Shown piece by piece: positions 278 through 11,982 of a stretch of 13,887 nucleotides of DNA; positions within the stretch are counted from its first letter, which is position 1; the number at the start of each line of letters is the position of its first letter. Below the pieces are notes generated by a model. It was given only the letters and a program-made list of their open reading frames with translations, ran no database searches and had not been told where the DNA came from. The position numbers and the translations under genes are program-made. Source of the DNA: a virus. The DNA lies in UHGV virus genome UHGV-0185895; one strand, given 5' to 3'.

Positions 278-952
278 TTAATTTTTTATTCTATATCTTC
301 TTGGTTTTCCTGAAAAAATCACGGTTCCAATGATTGAGCAATTACCGTTGATTTTTATATAGGGTTCAGGCCAGTTCGAATTAAGAGCTTTTAAATAACG
401 GTTACCGGCATCTTCAATCAGGCGCTTAAATGTTGTTTCTCCAGAGTCGTGCATCAAAGCGATAACATCATCGCCATGGACTGCGGGGACCTCAGGGTCA
501 ACAAAAATCATATCACCAGGGCGATACTCATCGATCATGGAGTCGCCAATTACTCGAAGGATGTATGTCATCGGGCCACAAGGGACAGGACAGGGATAGT
601 TTTCCGTACTATTCAAATCTACCTCAGCATAACCAACTTCGGTCCATGCTCCTGCCTGTACCCAGGATATAACCGGAACCATCGTGATATTTCTATTTGT
701 ATCGGAGACATCAGGGGCCTTTGCCACGTTTGTGGTTTGGTGTTCTTGATCTAACCACCCAGTTGGCAAGTCGAAACATTTTTCAATGTGCCTTGCCATA
801 GCATCGCCGATGTTTTTTGTCGCGCCGTCCCCCATGAACCGGCTTGTTTGAGTAGGCTCGCGATCAATCATATTGGCAAAAAAAGTATTTCCACCAACAC
901 CATCTCTCAACTTTCTGGCGTTTAAACGCCTGATTTCCTGGATTGTTTTCAT
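278..952 (-). CDS. cI: CI-like prophage repressor (N-terminal HTH, C-terminal S24/LexA-type autopeptidase domain)
   Basis: 224-aa ORF; C-terminal domain has the Ser motif VIGDSM and a downstream Lys (TTFKRL), plus a candidate Ala-Gly autocleavage site (WVQAGAW); divergent from cro across an operator-rich intergenic region; no SD upstream of the ATG, consistent with a leaderless message. Confidence 0.88.
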   Translation of the reverse strand: MKTIQEIRRLNARKLRDGVGGNTFFANMIDREPTQTSRFMGDGATKNIGDAMARHIEKCFDLPTGWLDQEHQTTNVAKAPDVSDTNRNITMVPVISWVQAGAWTEVGYAEVDLNSTENYPCPVPCGPMTYILRVIGDSMIDEYRPGDMIFVDPEVPAVHGDDVIALMHDSGETTFKRLIEDAGNRYLKALNSNWPEPYIKINGNCSIIGTVIFSGKPRRYRIKN

Positions 953-3780: not shown

Positions 3781-4034
3781 AATCGCAGGTTATATCACTA
3801 ACCCCTGAACAACTGCGCCGCCAGGCTGAAGACATGCTCAAACGTGCCGAACAACTGGAAAAGACGGGGGCCACAAAGGACGCGCTTAAAAAAGCGCTGG
3901 TACCGGCGTTGCGTGAACTGATGCAGGCCAAACATCGCGCACAGCTGGCAGTTGATGAGCTGGTTGATAGTGTTGCAGATCTGGAAGGCCGAGTGTCTCA
4001 TGTCGAGAAAGTAGTGCAGGAGGTGCTGGCGTGA
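3777..4034 (+). CDS. Hypothetical small, predicted coiled-coil protein
   Basis: 85 aa; ATGA overlap with the upstream stop and GTGA overlap with the downstream start; charged heptad-like sequence. Confidence 0.55.
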   Translation: MKSQVISLTPEQLRRQAEDMLKRAEQLEKTGATKDALKKALVPALRELMQAKHRAQLAVDELVDSVADLEGRVSHVEKVVQEVLA

Positions 4035-4927
4035 CGAATGCATATTGTGAATCGCTGGCGGCCATGCGCGCTGCACCGTCCCATTTTCTGAAAGACGTTG
4101 GTGATCAGTGGCGCACGCCTGATCTGCTGTTCTGGGGCGTTAACGCAATGTTTGGACCGCTGGTACTGGACCTGTTTGCTGACGATAGCAACGCAAAATG
4201 CCCGGTATGGTTCACCGCCGAAGACAACGCGCTGACGCAAGATTGGTCCGCTCGTCTGGAAGAACTTGGCGGCGCTGGCTTTGGCAACCCACCGTATAGC
4301 CGCTCCCAGTACCACGAAAAGCAGGCGATAACTGGCATGACGCACATCATGAATTACGCGTCAGCGCAGCGTGAGAAGGGCGGGCGCTATGTATTTCTCA
4401 TCAAAGCAGCACCGAGCGAAACATGGTGGCCAGAAGATGCCGATCACATCATGTTTATTCGTGGTCGTATTGGATTCGACCTCCCGGCGTGGTTTGTCCC
4501 TGCTGATGATAAGCAAAAGCCCACCAGCGCGTTTTTTGCGGGCGCCATTGCCGTGTTTGATAAGGCCTGGCGCGGGGAGCGGTTCGGCTATATCCACCGT
4601 GCGGATCTGGAAAGGAAAGGGCAAGCGTTCATGATGCTGGCGCAGTTTGCTGTTGGCAATACTCCAGCACAGGTAATGTCGCAGCCGGCGGCAGTAGAAC
4701 CACTCGCAACGCCTACGCAATTACCAGAGACGGAATCGCGTATTTGGCCACTGGAGGTAGGGCTTGTGTTTCGACAGGTAGAAGGATCCGAAGGACTGGA
4801 GCCGTCCCAGCAAAACAAGCTGATGGCGCAAATTAACCAGCTGTGGCTGGAGCGTATGCCCACCAGCGAGATCATCACTGTTGCTGGTGGACTGGTAGAA
4901 AGCATGCAGGGGGTGAGCCATGCGTGA
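4031..4927 (+). CDS. Phage-type DNA N6-adenine methyltransferase with a C-terminal extension of roughly 100 aa
   Basis: 298 aa; catalytic NPPY motif (GFGNPPYS); N-terminal region (WRTPDLLF...LDLFADDSNAKC) resembles phage Dam-family methyltransferases; the C-terminal third has no motif I recognise. Confidence 0.8.
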   Translation: MTNAYCESLAAMRAAPSHFLKDVGDQWRTPDLLFWGVNAMFGPLVLDLFADDSNAKCPVWFTAEDNALTQDWSARLEELGGAGFGNPPYSRSQYHEKQAITGMTHIMNYASAQREKGGRYVFLIKAAPSETWWPEDADHIMFIRGRIGFDLPAWFVPADDKQKPTSAFFAGAIAVFDKAWRGERFGYIHRADLERKGQAFMMLAQFAVGNTPAQVMSQPAAVEPLATPTQLPETESRIWPLEVGLVFRQVEGSEGLEPSQQNKLMAQINQLWLERMPTSEIITVAGGLVESMQGVSHA

Positions 4928-6770
4928 GCTGATTGTTGATAATTTTGCTGGCGGTGGTGGGGCATCTACCGGGATAGAAATGGCGATCGGCCGCAGCGTT
5001 GATATTGCCATTAACCACGACGAAAACGCCGTGGCCATGCACCGGACGAATCACCCGGACACGCTTCATTATTGTGAAAACGTCTTTGACGTTGACCCTG
5101 TCGCTGCGACAGGTGGAAAGGCTGTCTGGTTTGCATGGTTCAGCCCGGATTGTACCCACTATTCAAAGGCGCGCGGCAGTAAACCGGTAAAACGTGAGAT
5201 TCGTGGGCTGGCTTGGGTATCTGTTCGCTGGGCATTGGATGTTCGCCCTCGTGTAATGGCTCTCGAAAATGTTGAAGAATTTAAAACGTGGGGCCCGCTG
5301 CTTTCATGTGAGATGCGTCCTGATCCTAAGCGTTCTGGTGAAACCTTCCTGGCATTTGTTGGAATGCTTTCCACTGGTATACCTGCGGATCACCCGGCTC
5401 TGTACGAATGTTGCGAATTTCTCGGCATATCCTCGGATGGCAAACAAGCCAAACGACTGATTGCTGGCCTCGGGTATAAGGTCGAATATCGCGAACTGCG
5501 TGCCAGTGATTATGGTGCTCCGACGATCCGCAAGCGATTCTTCATGTTGATGCGTTGTGACGATAAACCCATTGCCTGGCCGGGAGTCACTCACGGTGAC
5601 CCTAAATCCGCAGCAGTTAAATCCGGAAATTTGGCACCATGGCGGACAGCTGCTGAGTGTATCGACTGGTCTATTCCTGCACCATCGATATTTGACCGTA
5701 AAAAGCCGCTGGCCATTAACACGTTGAAACGGATAGCGCGCGGCATCCAGCGGTTTGTCGTCGAAAGTGATAATCCGTTCATCGTCAAATGCAACCACAC
5801 CACAACACGCGGTAAATATGATTGCTTCCGCGGACAGTCGCTGGCCGATCCCCTGCAAACCATCACCAAAACCCACGGTTATGCGCTGGCGTTACCGACG
5901 TTGGTTCCATTCCTGGCAGGTAATGGGGGTAGCGAGTACCAGGCGAAACCGCGGCCATTGAATAAACCCGCTCATACCATCCTTAAACAGTCTCGCTCCT
6001 GCCTGGTTGCGCCAGTTATCGCGCGTCAGTTCGGCGCCAGCATCGGCCACCGGGCGGATGAACCCAGCGCAACAATTACCGCTGGCGGCGGGGGGAAGTC
6101 ACAGCTTGTCGCGGCCACACTTATTCAGATGGGGTATGGCGAACGTGTAGGGCAGTCGCCGCGCGTTCTAAATCTGCGTAAACCGCTGGGAACAGTTGTA
6201 GCTGGTGGCAATAAATTTGCCGTAACAACTGCGTTTTTGGCGAAACACTACGGCGGGAACTATACCGGCCCGGGCGTCGGACTGGACGATCCTGCACACT
6301 CAGTTACCACAGTCGATCACCATGCGCTGGTTACGTCTCATCTGGTTAAACTGCGCGGTACCTGCCGCGATGGCCAGCGCACCAGTGAACCAATGCCGAC
6401 AATCACCGCTGGAGGTCAGCATGTTGGAGAGGTTCGCGCGCTGCTGGCGGCTAATGATTACGACGAGCGCCGGGCGGATCAGGTCAAAGAGTTCCTGAAT
6501 TCTTTTGGCGTCAGCGAACTGGTGACGATTAAGGGTATTGTTTACCGCATTGTTGATATCGGAATGCGCATGCTGCAGCCGCATGAACTTTACCGCGCTC
6601 AGGGATTCCCTGACTGGTACATCATTGATCGTGACTACCGCGGCAAGAGGTACTCGAAAGAGAAACAAGTCGCCAGGTGCGGAAACGCCGTGCCGCCGCC
6701 CTTTGCTGAGGCGATTGTAAGAGCAAACCTTCCTGAAATTTGTGTTTCTGGTCGGCGTGAGGTTGCATGA
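4920..6770 (+). CDS. DNA cytosine-5 methyltransferase-like protein with a long repeat-containing variable region
   Basis: 616 aa; motif I FAGGGG, motif VI ENV, motif IX-like RMLQPHELYRAQGFPDWY and motif X GNAV are present in canonical order, but motif IV reads FSPDCTHYS rather than PCQ; ATG overlaps the upstream stop (ATGCGTGA). Confidence 0.8.
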   Translation: MRELIVDNFAGGGGASTGIEMAIGRSVDIAINHDENAVAMHRTNHPDTLHYCENVFDVDPVAATGGKAVWFAWFSPDCTHYSKARGSKPVKREIRGLAWVSVRWALDVRPRVMALENVEEFKTWGPLLSCEMRPDPKRSGETFLAFVGMLSTGIPADHPALYECCEFLGISSDGKQAKRLIAGLGYKVEYRELRASDYGAPTIRKRFFMLMRCDDKPIAWPGVTHGDPKSAAVKSGNLAPWRTAAECIDWSIPAPSIFDRKKPLAINTLKRIARGIQRFVVESDNPFIVKCNHTTTRGKYDCFRGQSLADPLQTITKTHGYALALPTLVPFLAGNGGSEYQAKPRPLNKPAHTILKQSRSCLVAPVIARQFGASIGHRADEPSATITAGGGGKSQLVAATLIQMGYGERVGQSPRVLNLRKPLGTVVAGGNKFAVTTAFLAKHYGGNYTGPGVGLDDPAHSVTTVDHHALVTSHLVKLRGTCRDGQRTSEPMPTITAGGQHVGEVRALLAANDYDERRADQVKEFLNSFGVSELVTIKGIVYRIVDIGMRMLQPHELYRAQGFPDWYIIDRDYRGKRYSKEKQVARCGNAVPPPFAEAIVRANLPEICVSGRREVA

Positions 6771-7828
6771 GAGCGTTACTCACCCCTGAGATTGTGCCAC
6801 GCCTCGGCGTGGTTCTATTTAAGCCCGGCCGTGATCTGATGCACCTGTTTTCTGCCGGGCGTGTTTTAGTCGAGGCTGAACCACAAAATATGGCCCGCTT
6901 GCCATCTGGTCGTGTCCCTGATGCCCGACAACCTTTAGCGGAGGATTCCAGCCTGCACGTATTCTTTTCCGATGAGCGTGTGATTCGTGCTGCTGGTGGA
7001 TTGCCAGCGCTTGAACGGTGGCTGTTTCTCCGGCTGAAGAGGTGCCAGTACCCTCATTCCGAGTACCACCATAACGAGATGGTAACGATGCGACATCCGC
7101 CTGGTGCGTTGCTGGTGTGCTGGCATTGTGACAATAAACTGCGGGAGCAGTCGACTCCAGCTATCGAGGCGCTGGCACTTCGTAATGTAGTCGACTGGGT
7201 AATAGATACTGTGCTGATCGGGCTCGGTTATAACAAAGAACGCTCTCTTTCAATCGCAGAGTTGTGCTGGTGGGCAGTTCAGTCAGGTATAGCCGATGCC
7301 ATTACGGAGACGATGGCGCAGCGTGGTCTAGGGTTGCCTGAAGAGCCGTTCCTGTCGGTGTATAAAGAAAGCGATATCCGGCCTACTTTACCGGCCACCA
7401 GCATTCTGCAGGAGAAACTGCCAGCTGCAGGCACAGCAAGGCAATGCAGGCGCAACGAAAATGTCCAGGCGCACCAGGACCAGCCGAAGGGGCTTGCGCT
7501 GACTGCCGATCCGGAATCGCCGGAATCTTTCATGCTCAGGCCAAAGCGCCGTCGCTGGGTAAGCAAGACTTATACCGACTGGGTTAAGCATCAACCATGC
7601 GAATGCTGCCGCAGACCAGCTGACGATCCGCATCATGTCATCGGCCATGGCATGGGCGGTACCGCAACCAAAGCCCACGATCTCTTCGTGTTTCCTCTGT
7701 GCAGAGAGTGCCACGACGAGCTACATGCCGATGTTAACGCCTTTGAAGAGAAGAATGGCACGCAGTTGGAGCTGCTGTTCCGTTTTCTTGATCGAGCTAT
7801 GGCGATCGGCGCAATTATAAAAGCATAG
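6767..7828 (+). CDS. DUF968-like prophage protein (YdfU-like) with a C-terminal Cys/His cluster
   Basis: 353 aa; C-terminal HQPCECCRRPADDPHHVIGHG...PLCRECHDELH cluster typical of DUF968; ATGA overlap with the methyltransferase stop; lies directly upstream of the Q-like gene, as ydfU does relative to quuQ in E. coli Qin (recalled, not searched). Confidence 0.75.
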   Translation: MRALLTPEIVPRLGVVLFKPGRDLMHLFSAGRVLVEAEPQNMARLPSGRVPDARQPLAEDSSLHVFFSDERVIRAAGGLPALERWLFLRLKRCQYPHSEYHHNEMVTMRHPPGALLVCWHCDNKLREQSTPAIEALALRNVVDWVIDTVLIGLGYNKERSLSIAELCWWAVQSGIADAITETMAQRGLGLPEEPFLSVYKESDIRPTLPATSILQEKLPAAGTARQCRRNENVQAHQDQPKGLALTADPESPESFMLRPKRRRWVSKTYTDWVKHQPCECCRRPADDPHHVIGHGMGGTATKAHDLFVFPLCRECHDELHADVNAFEEKNGTQLELLFRFLDRAMAIGAIIKA

Positions 7829-7848
7829 TGTATGGAGCGTTGAGCAGT

Positions 7849-8547
7849 ATGAACCTACAAAACCTGGAATATACCCGTATTGAAGTGCGTCGAGCGTTGT
7901 TGGATTTATCCGGCGCAACAAAGGGACAACTCGAGGCATTCAGCGAGAACCCACCGGCAGATAAGAATAAAAATCCGCGGTGCTCTCGCAATCTTGTCGA
8001 TCTGGAAGGGGGGATTGGTTGTGGCCCGTCGGTGGTTAAGGCACTGACTACTCCAGTTTATGTGATGGAGACCCGCAGCCGCCGCCGGCCAATGCCGCCC
8101 ATCAATGATATTGAATTCGGTTATTCACCGTGGAGGCGCGCTGTAAACCTGCTGGAAGAACATCACCAGGCATGGGTGCGCTATTGCTATGGCTTCGATC
8201 TAAATTTCCGTTACCAGACGCTGATGTGTGAACACGTCTGGACTGAATATCAGAACTATCAAGTAGGCAGGGCGATCCAATCGAGAGTAATAAAAAAGCT
8301 TGTGGGGCTGGTCTGGCTGGCTGGCCAGGAGGTTGCAGCGACCCGGAATAATGAGACGTATAAAACCTACGCTGGCGCAGCTCTGGCGCGTATGGTTTCA
8401 GTTGACCGCTCAACCTGGAAAAGGGTTTATGCCGGGCATTGGGAACGACTTAAAACGGCTTTCATTGAGATGGATAACAACGCATTGCAGAACATCTACA
8501 CATATCATGAGCAAATAGAAGAGGTCAGAACGGAAAAATGTGATTAA
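7849..8547 (+). CDS. Q-like late-gene antiterminator (tentative)
   Basis: 233 aa from the ATG at 7849 (GGAG at 7834-7837); last gene of the early operon, followed by a promoter-like region and a strong intrinsic terminator; call rests mainly on position and synteny. Confidence 0.5.
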   Translation: MNLQNLEYTRIEVRRALLDLSGATKGQLEAFSENPPADKNKNPRCSRNLVDLEGGIGCGPSVVKALTTPVYVMETRSRRRPMPPINDIEFGYSPWRRAVNLLEEHHQAWVRYCYGFDLNFRYQTLMCEHVWTEYQNYQVGRAIQSRVIKKLVGLVWLAGQEVAATRNNETYKTYAGAALARMVSVDRSTWKRVYAGHWERLKTAFIEMDNNALQNIYTYHEQIEEVRTEKCD

Positions 8548-8572
8548 AGTTGGCTATCTCCTTTAATCAGGC

Positions 8573-8601
8573 TTGCAAAATGCAACAAAATGAGCGATAT
8601 T
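8573..8601 (+). promoter_or_regulatory. Candidate late promoter (PR'-like)
   Basis: TTGCAA (8573-8578), 17-nt spacer, GATATT (8596-8601), between the Q-like gene and the terminator; hexamers are weak. Confidence 0.3.
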
Positions 8602-8638
8602 TTGAGGTAATTTGATATCTTGCCATTTTTATAAATAA

Positions 8639-8662
8639 CCTCGCTTCGGCGGGGTTTTTTGT
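8639..8662 (+). terminator. Intrinsic terminator (tR'-like) downstream of the Q-like gene
   Basis: Six-pair stem (one G-U) closed by a TTCG tetraloop, CCTCGC-TTCG-GCGGGG at 8639-8654, followed by a T6 run at 8655-8660. Confidence 0.6.
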
Positions 8663-8692
8663 TGGTTTATCTCGCACTCTCCCTCTCTCTGG

Positions 8693-8747
8693 ATAAACAA
8701 AAATGTTTATATTTTAGCTTGATTTAATAAACAAAAATGTTTATTAT
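8693..8747 (+). promoter_or_regulatory. hicAB promoter with two identical palindromic operator candidates
   Basis: Identical 18-bp palindrome ATAAACA-AAAA-TGTTTAT at 8693-8710 and 8727-8744; TTGATT (8719-8724), 17-nt spacer, TATTAT (8742-8747), with the second palindrome covering the spacer and -10. Confidence 0.5.
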
Positions 8748-8776
8748 TATCTCAAGTTAAACAGACAGGAGGAGGA

Positions 8777-8953
8777 GTGAAGCAAAGCGAGTTCAGGCGT
8801 TGGCTTGCAGCTCAAGGGGCAGAGTTTAAAGATGGTACCAACCACTTAAAAATTTACCTCAACGGCAAGCAAACGATAATGCCGAGACACCCGGGCAAGG
8901 AAATCCCGGAGCCGCTGAGAAAAGCAATTTTGAAGCAACTCGGTATCAAATAA
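8777..8953 (+). CDS. hicA: HicA-family toxin (mRNA interferase)
   Basis: 58 aa from the GTG at 8777 with AGGAGGAGG RBS; MKQSEFRRWL...HLK...MPRHPGKEIPEPLRKAILKQLGIK closely resembles HicA as recalled; below the 60-aa cut-off of the ORF track. Confidence 0.8.
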   Translation: MKQSEFRRWLAAQGAEFKDGTNHLKIYLNGKQTIMPRHPGKEIPEPLRKAILKQLGIK

Positions 8954-9000
8954 AAACCAGCCCTCCGGGGCTGGTACTCGTGGAGATTCACTTAATCAAT

Positions 9001-9408
9001 ATGAGATATCCGGTAAATTTTGAGCATGACGAAACCGGCTGGGCGGTATTTTTCCCAGATATCCCCGAGGCAATGACGGGAGGGGCAACCAGGGAGGAAG
9101 CGTTAGAAATGGCGCAGGATGCCCTGGTTACGGCGTTTGATTTCTATTTTGACGACCGCCGGGAGATCCCCGCACCTTCAGCAGAGGGTGAGGCGTTTGT
9201 TGAAGTGCCATCAAGCGTGGCGGCGAAGGTATTATTGCTAAACCGCCTGGTCAGTACCAATACCAGTAACGCTGAACTGGCCCGCATGATTAATACGCGC
9301 CCTCAGGAGGTACAGCGAATCGTGTCTCTTGGTCATAGCACCAAGATCGACACCATTCAAAAAGCACTATCGGTACTAGGACAAAAAATGGAAATAATTG
9401 TCCGGTAA
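9001..9408 (+). CDS. hicB: HicB-family antitoxin (N-terminal HicB fold, C-terminal DNA-binding domain)
   Basis: 135 aa from the ATG at 9001 (MRYPV...); DIPEA, TAFDFYF and VAAKVLLLN segments match E. coli HicB as recalled; lies downstream of hicA in the usual order. Confidence 0.8.
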   Translation: MRYPVNFEHDETGWAVFFPDIPEAMTGGATREEALEMAQDALVTAFDFYFDDRREIPAPSAEGEAFVEVPSSVAAKVLLLNRLVSTNTSNAELARMINTRPQEVQRIVSLGHSTKIDTIQKALSVLGQKMEIIVR

Positions 9409-10305: not shown

Positions 10306-10804
10306 AGCAAAAGGTTTTGTGATTGGTTTGATCCTCACCGGTGCATTTGGCGCAGGTGCATTCTGGAAGGATACACAGTGGCAATCGAAATGGCTGCAAC
10401 GGGATATTGACGAATCGGCACAGGCAGTGAATGCGCAAACCGTCGCCCGGATGATTGAACAGGGGCGCTTGATCGCCCGCGATGAGGCCGTACAAGATGC
10501 TCAAGCTCAAACCGCTGCAGCGCGTGCTGCTGCTGCTAATCTCTCTGGCACTGTTAACCAGCTGCGCCAGCAGGCAAAAGCCTTTGCCACCCGCCTGGAC
10601 GCCGCAAAGCACACCACAAGTCTTGCCGCTACCGTCAGAAGCAAAACAACCGGCACCACCGCCGGAATGCTCGCCGACATGCTTGGAGACCTTGCAGAAG
10701 AAGCTCGACGGTATGCTGAAATCGCTGACGAACGCTACACCGCAGGAATGATCTGTGAGCGGATTTACAAATCGGTGAGAACTTCTATCCCTGCTAAGGG
10801 ATAA
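10292..10804 (+). CDS. Rz: Rz-like i-spanin
   Basis: N-terminal TM segment ([17 protein letters not shown]) followed by a long Ala/Gln-rich helical region; overlaps the endolysin 3' end; Rz1-like ORF embedded in another frame. Confidence 0.7.
10497..10751 (+). CDS. Rz1: Rz1-like o-spanin lipoprotein, embedded within Rz
   Basis: [23 protein letters not shown] has a lipobox (LTSC, Cys23) and is followed by a Pro-rich mature region (PLPPAWTPQ...), resembling lambda Rz1; wholly inside the Rz gene in a different frame. Confidence 0.7.
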
Positions 10805-10830
10805 CATAATCAAAATCCCTACTAGGGGAT
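10786..10830. repeat. Two related palindromes at the Rz stop and just downstream
   Basis: TATCCCT-GCTA-AGGGATA (10786-10803, perfect 7-bp arms, overlapping the Rz stop) and ATCCC-TACTAG-GGGAT (10815-10830), each followed by AAC. Confidence 0.4.
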
Positions 10831-10843
10831 AACCGAGGACAAT

Positions 10844-11029
10844 ATGACCTTAGCCCAGTGCATTAAAATGCAGGAAGATGCAATATGTAACAAGGATGTG
10901 GAGGTTATAGATCTGAGAATGATTAATATCTGGGGACAGCGGCAAGCACCATGTGATAGCAAGCCGCTGATGGGGGAGCCGCACTCAGAAACCACAGTAG
11001 TATTTCTACCGGCATGGCTTAACTATTAA
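10844..11029 (+). CDS. Questionable small ORF (61 aa), AT-rich, convergent with the protease gene
   Basis: GAGGA 5 nt upstream of the ATG; 3' end overlaps the protease gene 3' end by 11 nt; no recognisable motif. Confidence 0.3.
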   Translation: MTLAQCIKMQEDAICNKDVEVIDLRMINIWGQRQAPCDSKPLMGEPHSETTVVFLPAWLNY

Positions 11030-11480
11030 ACAACAACTCGAATTTGTTATTTTTGTAGTCAAGCGTGAATGAGCAGTGTTGAAGAAACTCCATCCCAAGA
11101 ATTGCTTTGAAGTGTCGCCCATTATTAACTAAAGGGGTTGCATGAAATTCTTGAGAAAAAAGGCGCCCGTCGTTTGTTAGGCTCATAACCGCCCTGCGAG
11201 CTGTTGAATTAATTGTAGAAGTTCCTCCCCGAACTTGGATTTCGCTGGTAACTGGGAGTTCTAATTCATCAGCAAAATCATTATCGATATAACAGGCGGT
11301 AGCACCAGTATCGATCAGAACCATAGCTGATTCATGTTTCTCGGGGTTCGGTATTTGATAATGATTATCTTTGTCAACCGCTGCAAATGTGACAACTATC
11401 ACGGGTACAGCCATTGGTTGCGGTGTAGTTGAAAATTCCCCGCTGCTGTTCATAAAGTACACTGGTAAATTAATTGCCAT
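11019..11480 (-). CDS. Retropepsin-like aspartic protease (single-domain, presumably active as a homodimer)
   Basis: 153 aa; active-site signature LIDTGAT (D57-T58-G59-A60), Gly-rich flap VRGGTS and C-terminal ILGMEFL motif; opposite strand to all neighbours; sampled 60-nt stretches give roughly 35-45% GC against about 60% near the terminase genes. Confidence 0.7.
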   Translation of the reverse strand: MAINLPVYFMNSSGEFSTTPQPMAVPVIVVTFAAVDKDNHYQIPNPEKHESAMVLIDTGATACYIDNDFADELELPVTSEIQVRGGTSTINSTARRAVMSLTNDGRLFSQEFHATPLVNNGRHFKAILGMEFLQHCSFTLDYKNNKFELLFNS

Positions 11481-11612
11481 CTCATTTCCTTAAGCAGAAC
11501 TAATCAGCCAGTTCTCTGCCATTACATGTTCGTCAGTGTCCCACCACGGACGGGCTGAGCCGTAACCTTACACGCTGAGGTTTCACAGTAACACCCTGAT
11601 ATTTAGCCAGTA

Positions 11613-11639
11613 GCCTCGCATACGCGGGGCTTTTTTATT
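11613..11639 (+). terminator. Intrinsic terminator-like hairpin immediately upstream of the two unknown ORFs
   Basis: GCCTCGC-ATAC-GCGGGGC (7-bp stem with one G-U) at 11613-11630, followed by a T6 run at 11631-11636. Confidence 0.45.
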
Positions 11640-11655
11640 CGTAAAAGGTAACCCG

Positions 11656-11982
11656 ATGCAGAGTTTAAAAATTGAATACGTTAACGGGGTGCTGGTGAGC
11701 CTTGAACGCGATGGCAAGTCCTATATGGGCCTACCTGTCAGCACGGTTCACTTCACTCATAGCATGAAAACGACCCCTTATCTCAAGGTCGAAATTGAAG
11801 CTGGTGGCGAGCCATATACACCACCAGCGAAACAGGCACCAGCACCAGCAGCAGCAGCGCCCGCATCTGCTCGGGTGAGTGAGCAGCCACCAGCGCGCGA
11901 GGGTGAGCTCCTACCTCAGGAGGAGAACCAAAAGCAACGTTCACGCCGTAACCGCAACCATCGAAATCATCGGAGCCAATAA
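11656..11982 (+). CDS. Hypothetical protein: small N-terminal domain, Ala/Pro-rich linker, Arg/Asn/His-rich basic tail
   Basis: 108 aa; C-terminus QKQRSRRNRNHRNHRSQ; TAATG stop/start overlap with the next ORF. Confidence 0.5.
   Translation: MQSLKIEYVNGVLVSLERDGKSYMGLPVSTVHFTHSMKTTPYLKVEIEAGGEPYTPPAKQAPAPAAAAPASARVSEQPPAREGELLPQEENQKQRSRRNRNHRNHRSQ

Follow-up and report, generated by a model that had tools for sequence, protein, structure and literature searches.

A predicted retropepsin-like protease as cargo of an HK97/HK022-type reverse moron in a lambda-like Klebsiella phage

We analysed a 13,887-nt stretch of the virus genome UHGV-0185895 (hereafter the window), whose phage is present on five metagenome contigs at 99.9% identity. 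Downstream of its spanin gene Rz lies a segment that codes, on the minus strand, for a 153-residue retropepsin-like aspartic protease. A first-pass annotation of the sequence had described this open reading frame (ORF) and a small convergent ORF of 61 codons. Both were found as described: the protease gene starts with an ATG preceded by a Shine-Dalgarno sequence (AAGGA, 11491-11487), and the 61-codon ORF overlaps its 3' end by 11 nt. The features of the region are the following.

10787-10805, no strand: palindrome 1, ATCCCTGCTAAGGGATAAC, overlapping the Rz stop codon; backbone, present at both empty sites described below
10815-10833, no strand: palindrome 2, ATCCCTACTAGGGGATAAC; backbone, at the left edge of the insertion
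10834-11611, no strand: inserted moron cassette of ~778 bp with 44% GC, its junctions placed by comparison with two empty-site phages
10844-11029, plus strand: 61-residue ORF, a diverged copy of a short coiled-coil gene (MTLEQRVEALEK...), with a GAGGA Shine-Dalgarno sequence upstream
11019-11480, minus strand: retropepsin-like aspartic protease of 153 residues, with DTGA at residues 57-60, a flap hairpin around VRGGTST and ILGMEFL containing Gly129
11612-11639, plus strand: intrinsic terminator, AGCCTCGCATACGCGGGGCT (stem 11612-11631) followed by T6, abutting the leader of the protease gene; also at the empty sites

Two related Klebsiella phages, KpnBHU6 and ST846-OXA48phi9.1 (loci L014 and L015), have the same flanks and an empty site with exactly these boundaries. 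Their homology with the window ends at positions 10807 and 10831 and restarts at 11611 and 11613, respectively. Both phages show the order Rz stop codon, palindrome 1, palindrome 2, ~10 bp, an identical terminator hairpin and the next ORF, and those ~10 bp stand in place of the ~778 bp of the window (10834-11611, 44% GC). Because two phages with the same flanks have empty sites, the island is a real insertion and not a chance feature. It occupies the slot that harbours bor in lambda, as had been proposed, and it has two hallmarks of morons, namely extra DNA relative to collinear relatives and a base composition unlike that of its neighbours (43.9% GC at 10832-11612, 52.0% in the rest of the window). 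The GC content at third codon positions of the protease gene is 37%. The AT-rich dip reported by the first-pass annotation is thus real, but its figures of 35-45% against 60% are wrong, the actual values being ~44% against 50-56%. The GC content around Nu1 and the terminase gene is ~52-54%, and the maximum of the window, 59.7%, is found at 6.0-6.3 kb.

The paired palindromes and the terminator flanking the island had been assigned to it. They do exist; however, they belong to the phage backbone since they are found at the empty sites, which rules out that they arrived with the island. The two palindromes form a family of 19-nt direct repeats, and on the minus strand palindrome 2 makes a weak hairpin followed by a T-rich tail. 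The hairpins on that strand downstream of the protease gene, at 11011-10995 and 10830-10815, are both weak. The stem of the phage-direction terminator is kept between the window and a related phage (L006), and its loop is variable. Two more ORFs, of 108 and 139 residues, separate the island from Nu1. In related phages, a second gene opens with a version of the first ~33 nt of the former (ATGCAGAGTTTAAAAATTGAATACG..., window 11650-11682) that is 88-91% identical (L006 9296-9328 and L015 3883-3923), which suggests paralogous N-termini or a recombination linker.

The protease harbours LIDTGAT (with Asp57), VRGGTST and ILGMEFL, in the order first reported. We tested its membership of the retropepsin-like aspartic peptidases of clan AA (Pfam PF13975 / PF13650). 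A profile hidden Markov model search yielded three Pfam retropepsin families above their curated cut-offs: gag-asp_proteas (33.9 bits, cut-off 28.2), Asp_protease_2 (32.9, cut-off 24.3) and RVP_2 (23.4, cut-off 20.3). Membership of TIGR02281, the DTGA subfamily of clan AA, was rejected at 26.9 bits for a cut-off of 57.95. An exhaustive HMMER search collected 79 representatives at E-values up to 1e-3, ~25 of them full-length proteins of ~150 residues with 24-34% identity to the window protein. In the alignment of 25 homologues, P26, L55, D57, T58, G59, A60 and G129 are invariant, and the consensus reads IxFM..G, PVI, ALIDTGAD..YID, V.GATST and PL..NGR.Y..ILGM.FL. AlphaFold2, provided with the homologue alignment, modelled the single chain with a predicted local distance difference test score (pLDDT) of 91.2 and a predicted template modelling score (pTM) of 0.86. 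The model has the retropepsin beta-barrel, a flap hairpin and the C-terminal hydrophobic-hydrophobic-Gly motif followed by a short helix. The retropepsin-like identity proposed at first is thus borne out by the Pfam matches, by motifs that are invariant across distant homologues and by the predicted fold. The assignment itself is not new, as the homologues are already named 'retropepsin-like aspartic protease' by the NCBI pipeline.

As had been pointed out, the active enzyme must be a homodimer because each chain has only one DTGA motif; homodimer formation and catalysis are presumed. The protein has no signal peptide, membrane segment or lipobox, judging from its sequence and model. Relative to an 87%-identical copy from Klebsiella oxytoca, the ratio of non-synonymous to synonymous substitution rates (dN/dS) is 0.25, indicating purifying selection on a gene whose catalytic motif is intact.

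The top Foldseek match in the PDB is APRc, and the top viral models are uncharacterized phage proteins called 'aspartic protease'. Approximately 100-116 residues are superposable, and the N-terminal ~45 residues form a beta extension specific to the family. A phmmer search of PDB sequences returned chance matches only. APRc (RC1339) of Rickettsia conorii (PDB 5c9b/5c9f) is 14-17% identical to the window protein. It is membrane-anchored and processes autotransporters (PMC10414592), whereas the window protein is predicted to be soluble, is prophage-borne and has the ~45-residue N-terminal extension. Retroviral proteases and the RVP domain of Ddi1 are 13-22% identical to it; the window protein is not embedded in a polyprotein or in a ubiquitin-shuttle protein and has the extra N-terminal beta segment. 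A further comparison is offered by RimB, a retropepsin-like protein of Pseudomonas that trims polyglutamate from ribosomal protein S6 and is encoded in the chromosomal rimABK operon (PMC11957791). Like the window protein, RimB is small, cytoplasmic and stand-alone, and it has one narrow substrate. It demonstrates that such small proteins can be active and specific, although it has no detectable sequence relation to the window protein, lies outside the Pfam matches of the latter and is not carried by a phage moron.

The stretch between the protease gene and the terminator is shared with many other phage loci, which the first-pass annotation had missed. We aligned 70 non-redundant versions of this leader (alignment A3), from which the following features were derived.

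11559-11611, minus strand: promoter-like part of the leader, with CTG-N9-CAG (11610-11596), TGTTAC (11593-11588), a 17-nt spacer and TAAGGT (11570-11565)
11481-11558, minus strand: predicted structured 5' untranslated region (UTR) of ~78 nt, from pair counts on the 70-leader alignment
11558-11553, minus strand: 5' arm of P1, UCAGCC, complementary to GGCUGA in the P3 loop
11551-11532, minus strand: hairpin P2, GUCNGUG-GUGGGA-CACN'GRC, 98.8% paired
11518-11494, minus strand: hairpin P3, CAGAGG, loop AUGGCUGAUUA and CCUCUG, with GGCUGA of the loop at 11509-11504; five of the six pairs covary

In the promoter-like part, the -10-like hexamer TAaGGT has T in 70, A in 69, G in 66 and T in 70 of the 70 leaders at its first, second, fifth and sixth positions, respectively. 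The three most important positions of a sigma-70 -10 element are thus retained. Seventeen columns upstream, the box TGTTrC is conserved to a similar degree (T70, G66, T69 and T65 for its first four columns). The inverted repeat CTG-N9-CAG, invariant in all 70 leaders (columns 70-84 of A3), is found just upstream of this -35-like box, too far upstream to be included in the predicted transcript. It could be a protein-binding site.

The predicted transcript would start with a structured UTR. Over the alignment, 90.7% of the pairing cells are occupied by pairs, against 24-51% when the register of the partners is shifted by one to three columns. Changes on both sides are seen at nine pairs, and none of 500 shuffles reached the observed values; these figures are to be read with the provisos that the search anchor fixes most of P2, that the sequences are interrelated and that the structure was derived from the same sequences. 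One P2 pair is U·G in 49 leaders and U-A in 20, and another is G-C in 60 and G·U in 10. On the antisense strand these wobble pairs would be A·C mismatches, whereas they are compatible with folding of the cargo-sense strand; folding of the antisense strand is ruled out by the U·G (49/70) and G·U (10/70) pairs. P1, invariant and 97.6% paired, would represent a possible pairing of the 5' UCAGCC with the loop of P3. Searches of Rfam with both strands of this region of the window and with six consensus-type leader loci gave no match at E-values up to 1.

To define the distribution of the leader, we performed a census with an 18-nt leader anchor. It retrieved at least 120 IMG/VR contigs and ~16 loci of Enterobacteriaceae genomes, after chance matches in high-GC taxa had been removed by requiring the rest of the leader. 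This is an undercount, since the anchor misses HK97 and HK022, which have CCGCC in place of CCGTC. The ORFs downstream of 144 leader instances fall into 25 families, including one non-Enterobacteriaceae chance match and one disrupted protease (L017). About 24 unrelated real cargo families are found behind the same leader. The largest is the protease family with 26 instances, six of which are the window phage itself. Most other cargos have 56 to 95 residues, and those tested are all of 'unknown function' in PHROGs, one being a DUF1883 protein. In 129 of 138 cassettes, the long phage ORFs on the flanks are mainly on the strand opposite to the cargo.

BLAST searches with the consensus leader matched phages HK022, HK633, mEp213, mEp043, ES18, SPN3UB and Oslo. 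The consensus also matches, in whole or in part, 224 of 5,426 complete E. coli genomes, 48 of them over at least 80% of the leader length; all matches are chromosomal and none is annotated. In annotated phage records, the leader precedes HK022 gp23 ('moron gene product'), which is encoded between tail genes I and J, HK97 gp23 ('reverse moron product'), ES18 gp25 ('possible moron') and HK633 gp65, the leaders of HK97 and HK022 having been read directly. The gp22-gp23 cassettes of HK97 and HK022 and the gp24-gp25 cassette of ES18 have the same layout as the island, with the ~130-nt leader abutted by a phage-direction terminator, an antisense cargo and a convergent gene in the phage direction. 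They differ from it by their cargos, of 73 to 95 residues and of unknown function rather than a 153-residue retropepsin-like protease, and by their sites, at the tail gene junctions I/J or M/L rather than after Rz. In HK633, a cassette with this leader is also found downstream of Rz. Judged by leader and layout, the island is the gp22-gp23 type of reverse moron of HK97 and HK022, a relationship that had gone unnoticed in the first-pass annotation, and it carries a new cargo.

The protease cassette itself occurs at more than one site. A 45%-identical protease is encoded on two circular 50-kb Enterobacter elements that contain phage genes; its gene follows the lysis genes on one of them and separates tail genes M and L on the other. 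The segment that they share, ~770 bp at 94% identity, runs from the start codon of a small convergent ORF to the vicinity of a terminator hairpin. The 130-150 nt preceding the protease gene are 74% identical between the window and these elements, while the coding DNA no longer aligns. Relative to the K. oxytoca copy, identity is 91.6% in the leader, 90% in the protease gene and 80% in the small ORF. Altogether, the protease cassette is found in at least three kinds of phage site and beside at least five different flanking sequences.

One contig (L096, IMG/VR UViG_2582580856_000003) contains two leader cassettes ~2 kb apart (leaders at 2301-2318 and 4353-4370), one with the protease and the other with a 73-residue cargo of the HK022 gp23 family. 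One phage can therefore hold several cassettes.

In every case, no more than a few bases separate the start of the leader from a phage-direction terminator hairpin (11612-11631 in the window, ~5807-5827 in L016 and ~5791-5811 in L017). In other cassettes too, the leader is abutted by equivalent hairpins whose stems covary; the hairpin covaries at three of its five pairs in the leader alignment, and it carries a terminator annotation in ES18 and HK97. The hairpins of the two 94%-identical Enterobacter cassettes differ, and the commonest hairpin, GCCGCACGATGGCGGC, adjoins several different flanks. The terminator may thus be a part of the cassette, a preferred landing site or both.

The small convergent ORF also recurs. 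Many cassettes with unrelated cargos close with a phage-direction ORF starting with MTLEQRVEALEK, always preceded by a Shine-Dalgarno sequence and showing synonymous variation (Arg as CGT, CGA, CGC or AGA; Leu as TTA, CTG, CTT or TTG). Conservation is limited to the N-terminal coiled coil, and the C-terminal parts, which extend antisense into the cargo, vary from one ORF to the next. The window version, MTLAQCIKMQED, is the most diverged. Compared with its K. oxytoca counterpart, it has a dN/dS of 0.29 in frame, whereas the two alternative frames give 1.8 and 0.5. We read it as a real short coiled-coil gene of many such cassettes, based on this pattern of conservation. It has no PHROG family, and tblastn found no match to it in 50,697 phage records. 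HK97, HK022 and ES18 have other genes in this position, that of ES18 (gp24) coding for a DUF1327 protein, a family for which a literature search found nothing relevant.

This arrangement is reminiscent of a toxin and its antidote: the protease would be a toxic abortive-infection effector, held in check by the convergent small protein or by an antisense RNA ending at the 11612-11639 terminator. The convergent overlap of the two ORFs at their 3' ends, a leader more conserved than the coding sequence, as in antisense-controlled loci, and the phage-direction terminator abutting the leader in every cassette would fit such a system. We nevertheless consider it very unlikely. The coiled-coil ORF goes with a wide range of unrelated cargos and lacks conservation in its C-terminal part, which rules it out as a specific partner or antitoxin of the protease. 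Furthermore, the helices, rich in G·U pairs, point to folding of the sense strand rather than of an antisense RNA, and the empty sites have the terminator as well.

The protein might instead be a non-catalytic or decaying passenger with a retropepsin fold but no proteolytic function that matters. In the Enterobacter asburiae plasmid p16773_4 (L017, ~5940-6405, between tail genes M and L), the N-terminal part of the protease gene has stop codons and the protein is annotated from an internal start, so that this copy is probably a pseudogene. In addition, the small ORF and the P2 helix of the window are degenerate versions of the consensus, and retropepsin domains of the Ddi1 type can be very weak enzymes. 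Against this view, the dN/dS of the window gene is 0.25, and homologues of 24-34% identity all keep Asp-Thr-Gly-Ala and Gly129. The protease is also the commonest of the sampled cargos and occurs beside at least five different flanks. A mere passenger therefore appears highly improbable.

Distant homologues of the protease were examined in their genetic settings. In the tail operons of four Pseudomonas prophages, the homologue is on the opposite strand just past a gpK-like tail gene, and in one prophage it is found among head-tail connector genes. The Pseudomonas homologues, two of which are only ~51% identical to each other, have their own conserved leader of ~120-170 nt. This leader is unrelated in sequence to the enterobacterial one and contains GCCAGTAAC, CCGTAGTAGC and a hairpin CCCAGUCC...GGACUGGG followed by TAGGAGG. 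It was located at the following positions.

L007, 6830-7003: Pseudomonas leader
L011, 6830-7003: Pseudomonas leader
L012, 302-475: Pseudomonas leader
L013, 3487-3660: Pseudomonas leader

From these gene neighbourhoods, the protease family is a recurrent, solitary, opposite-strand accessory gene of temperate phages in two bacterial orders. At one metagenomic locus (L009 2669-7765, and L010), a homologue is encoded upstream of an ABC ATPase similar to those of OLD, Gabija and Septu, an HNH protein and a histidine-kinase-like ATPase. The best PADLOC matches of the ABC ATPase are NsnB, AriA, Old, GajA and PtuA, and in gene content the locus looks like a defence-island setting.

We favour the view that a reverse moron has entered a lambda-like Klebsiella phage at the junction of the spanin gene and the following late gene, with a soluble cytoplasmic protease as its cargo and a benefit for the lysogen. 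Taken as a whole, this explanation seems to us somewhat more probable than improbable. The cassette supplies a conserved promoter-like region, a predicted structured 5' UTR of ~78 nt and a cargo gene directed against the late operon. In the repressed prophage, the cargo would be transcribed from the promoter of the cassette. After induction, convergent late transcription, antiterminated by Q, would oppose that of the cargo, and the phage-direction terminator would halt read-through that is not antiterminated. The protease would homodimerize and cleave a cytoplasmic target, either a protein of a superinfecting phage or a host protein, and the lysogen would gain by exclusion, defence or conversion.

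The benefit to the lysogen is favoured by analogy with characterized morons, HK97 gp15, cor and bor (PMC3594210). In lambda, bor is found in the same slot, on the opposite strand and downstream of the spanin gene; it is accessory, expressed in the lysogen and dispensable for lytic growth (PMC3594210). Bor is an outer-membrane lipoprotein, in contrast with the protease fold and the lack of a signal sequence of the window protein, whose Pfam matches include no Bor profile. The more specific function, phage exclusion by proteolysis to the benefit of the lysogen, we propose only tentatively, as a possibility with the balance tilted against it. A broader proposal combines the two strands of this work: the ~130-nt leader would be an undescribed cis-regulatory RNA, made of a 5' hairpin and a second hairpin with a loop that pairs to the 5' end, and would control a plug-in platform for phage genes expressed in the lysogen, and the protease, one of its common cargos, an unrecognized effector of proteolytic phage exclusion in prophages of Enterobacteriaceae and Pseudomonas. 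We regard this combination as doubtful.

Several results weigh against the favoured explanation. The protease has no PHROG family, and tblastn detected no match to it in 50,697 phage records. A megablast search of E. coli genomes was likewise without a match. The lack of an assigned role noted at first thus holds, and searches of the literature on retropepsins in prophages or in anti-phage defence found no function or other relevant report. The only match in defence databases is weak (PADLOC candidate PDC-M08B, E-value 1.2e-6, residues 49-146). The PDC systems are guilt-by-embedding candidates in PADLOC, and we found nothing relevant on PDC-M08 in the literature. Membership of that system was rejected, given this weak B match, no A component among the neighbouring genes and three distant homologues that do not match PDC-M08B. 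The other cargos of the leader are small and of unknown function, and the context therefore says nothing specific on the role of the protease. With respect to expression, a simple scan for consensus sigma-70 promoters called none on the minus strand in 11481-11650, and since it did not detect TGTTrC-17-TAaGGT, the promoter is proposed from its conservation. Finally, the predicted stability of the UTR of the window does not exceed that of shuffled sequence (z = -0.36) and its P2 carries a C·U mismatch; as the stability is not significant, it is covariation that argues for the structure.

Two further roles for the protease were considered. In the first, it would be a counter-defence or host-takeover factor, expressed early in infection from its own promoter and cleaving a host immunity protein or another host protein to the advantage of the phage rather than of the lysogen. 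The cassette carries many small and diverse cargos with fast turnover, a pattern that anti-defence loci typically show as well; early expression could be driven by a promoter that does not depend on the late operon; and the protein has neither signal peptide nor membrane segment. Nevertheless, the systematic antisense orientation in late operons together with a low GC content is the classical signature of morons expressed in the lysogen, and no cargo matches a known anti-defence family; we deem this role unlikely. In the second, the protease would serve the lytic cycle, for instance by processing a virion or lysis protein. Its position between lysis and packaging genes and the common occurrence of maturation proteases in phages might point that way. 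However, an S49 head-maturation protease is already encoded downstream, the island is missing altogether from close relatives, tail operons too can host this cassette and the gene faces against the late operon, all of which make a lytic role extremely unlikely.

The rest of the window bears on one more earlier statement, that the protease gene is the only one facing against the phage operons. This is not so, as shown by the following gene.

278-952, minus strand: CI-like repressor (Peptidase_S24 domain); the genes that it faces are Cro/YdaS-like (1019-1240) and CII-like (1285-1842)

A HicA toxin and HicB antitoxin pair is encoded at 8777-9408 on the plus strand, between the gene of the Q antiterminator (7828-8547) and the holin gene. 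With a dip to 37-42% GC at ~8400-9000, it resembles a further accessory insertion, here in the phage direction. The K. oxytoca relative has the two genes in inverted orientation, beside an extra N6/N4 methylase gene. The early-right operon harbours a large methylation module (4031-6770, plus strand), with genes for a Dam-like methylase of 298 residues, a 616-residue protein with a weak DNA_methylase match and a DUF968 protein.

Two aspects of these cassettes seem to be undescribed. The first is that a leader with covarying helices is shared by about two dozen cargo families, although the original comparison of HK97 and HK022 may have noted the similarity; we found no functional study of gp23 of either phage. 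The second is the presence of a retropepsin-like protease among the commonest cargos of this leader. Morons are the part of the prophage that alters the abilities of the host cell, and most have no known function. Retropepsin-like proteases are rarely characterized in bacteria, and here one is among the commonest sampled cargos of the archetypal reverse moron of HK97 and HK022. It represents a concrete enzyme with a single mutable catalytic residue with which to test how a moron acts. The leader, unannotated so far, is present on at least 120 viral contigs and has matches in ~4% of the complete genomes of E. coli. Should it prove to control expression, it would serve as a handle for finding cargos and for working out when prophages turn them on.

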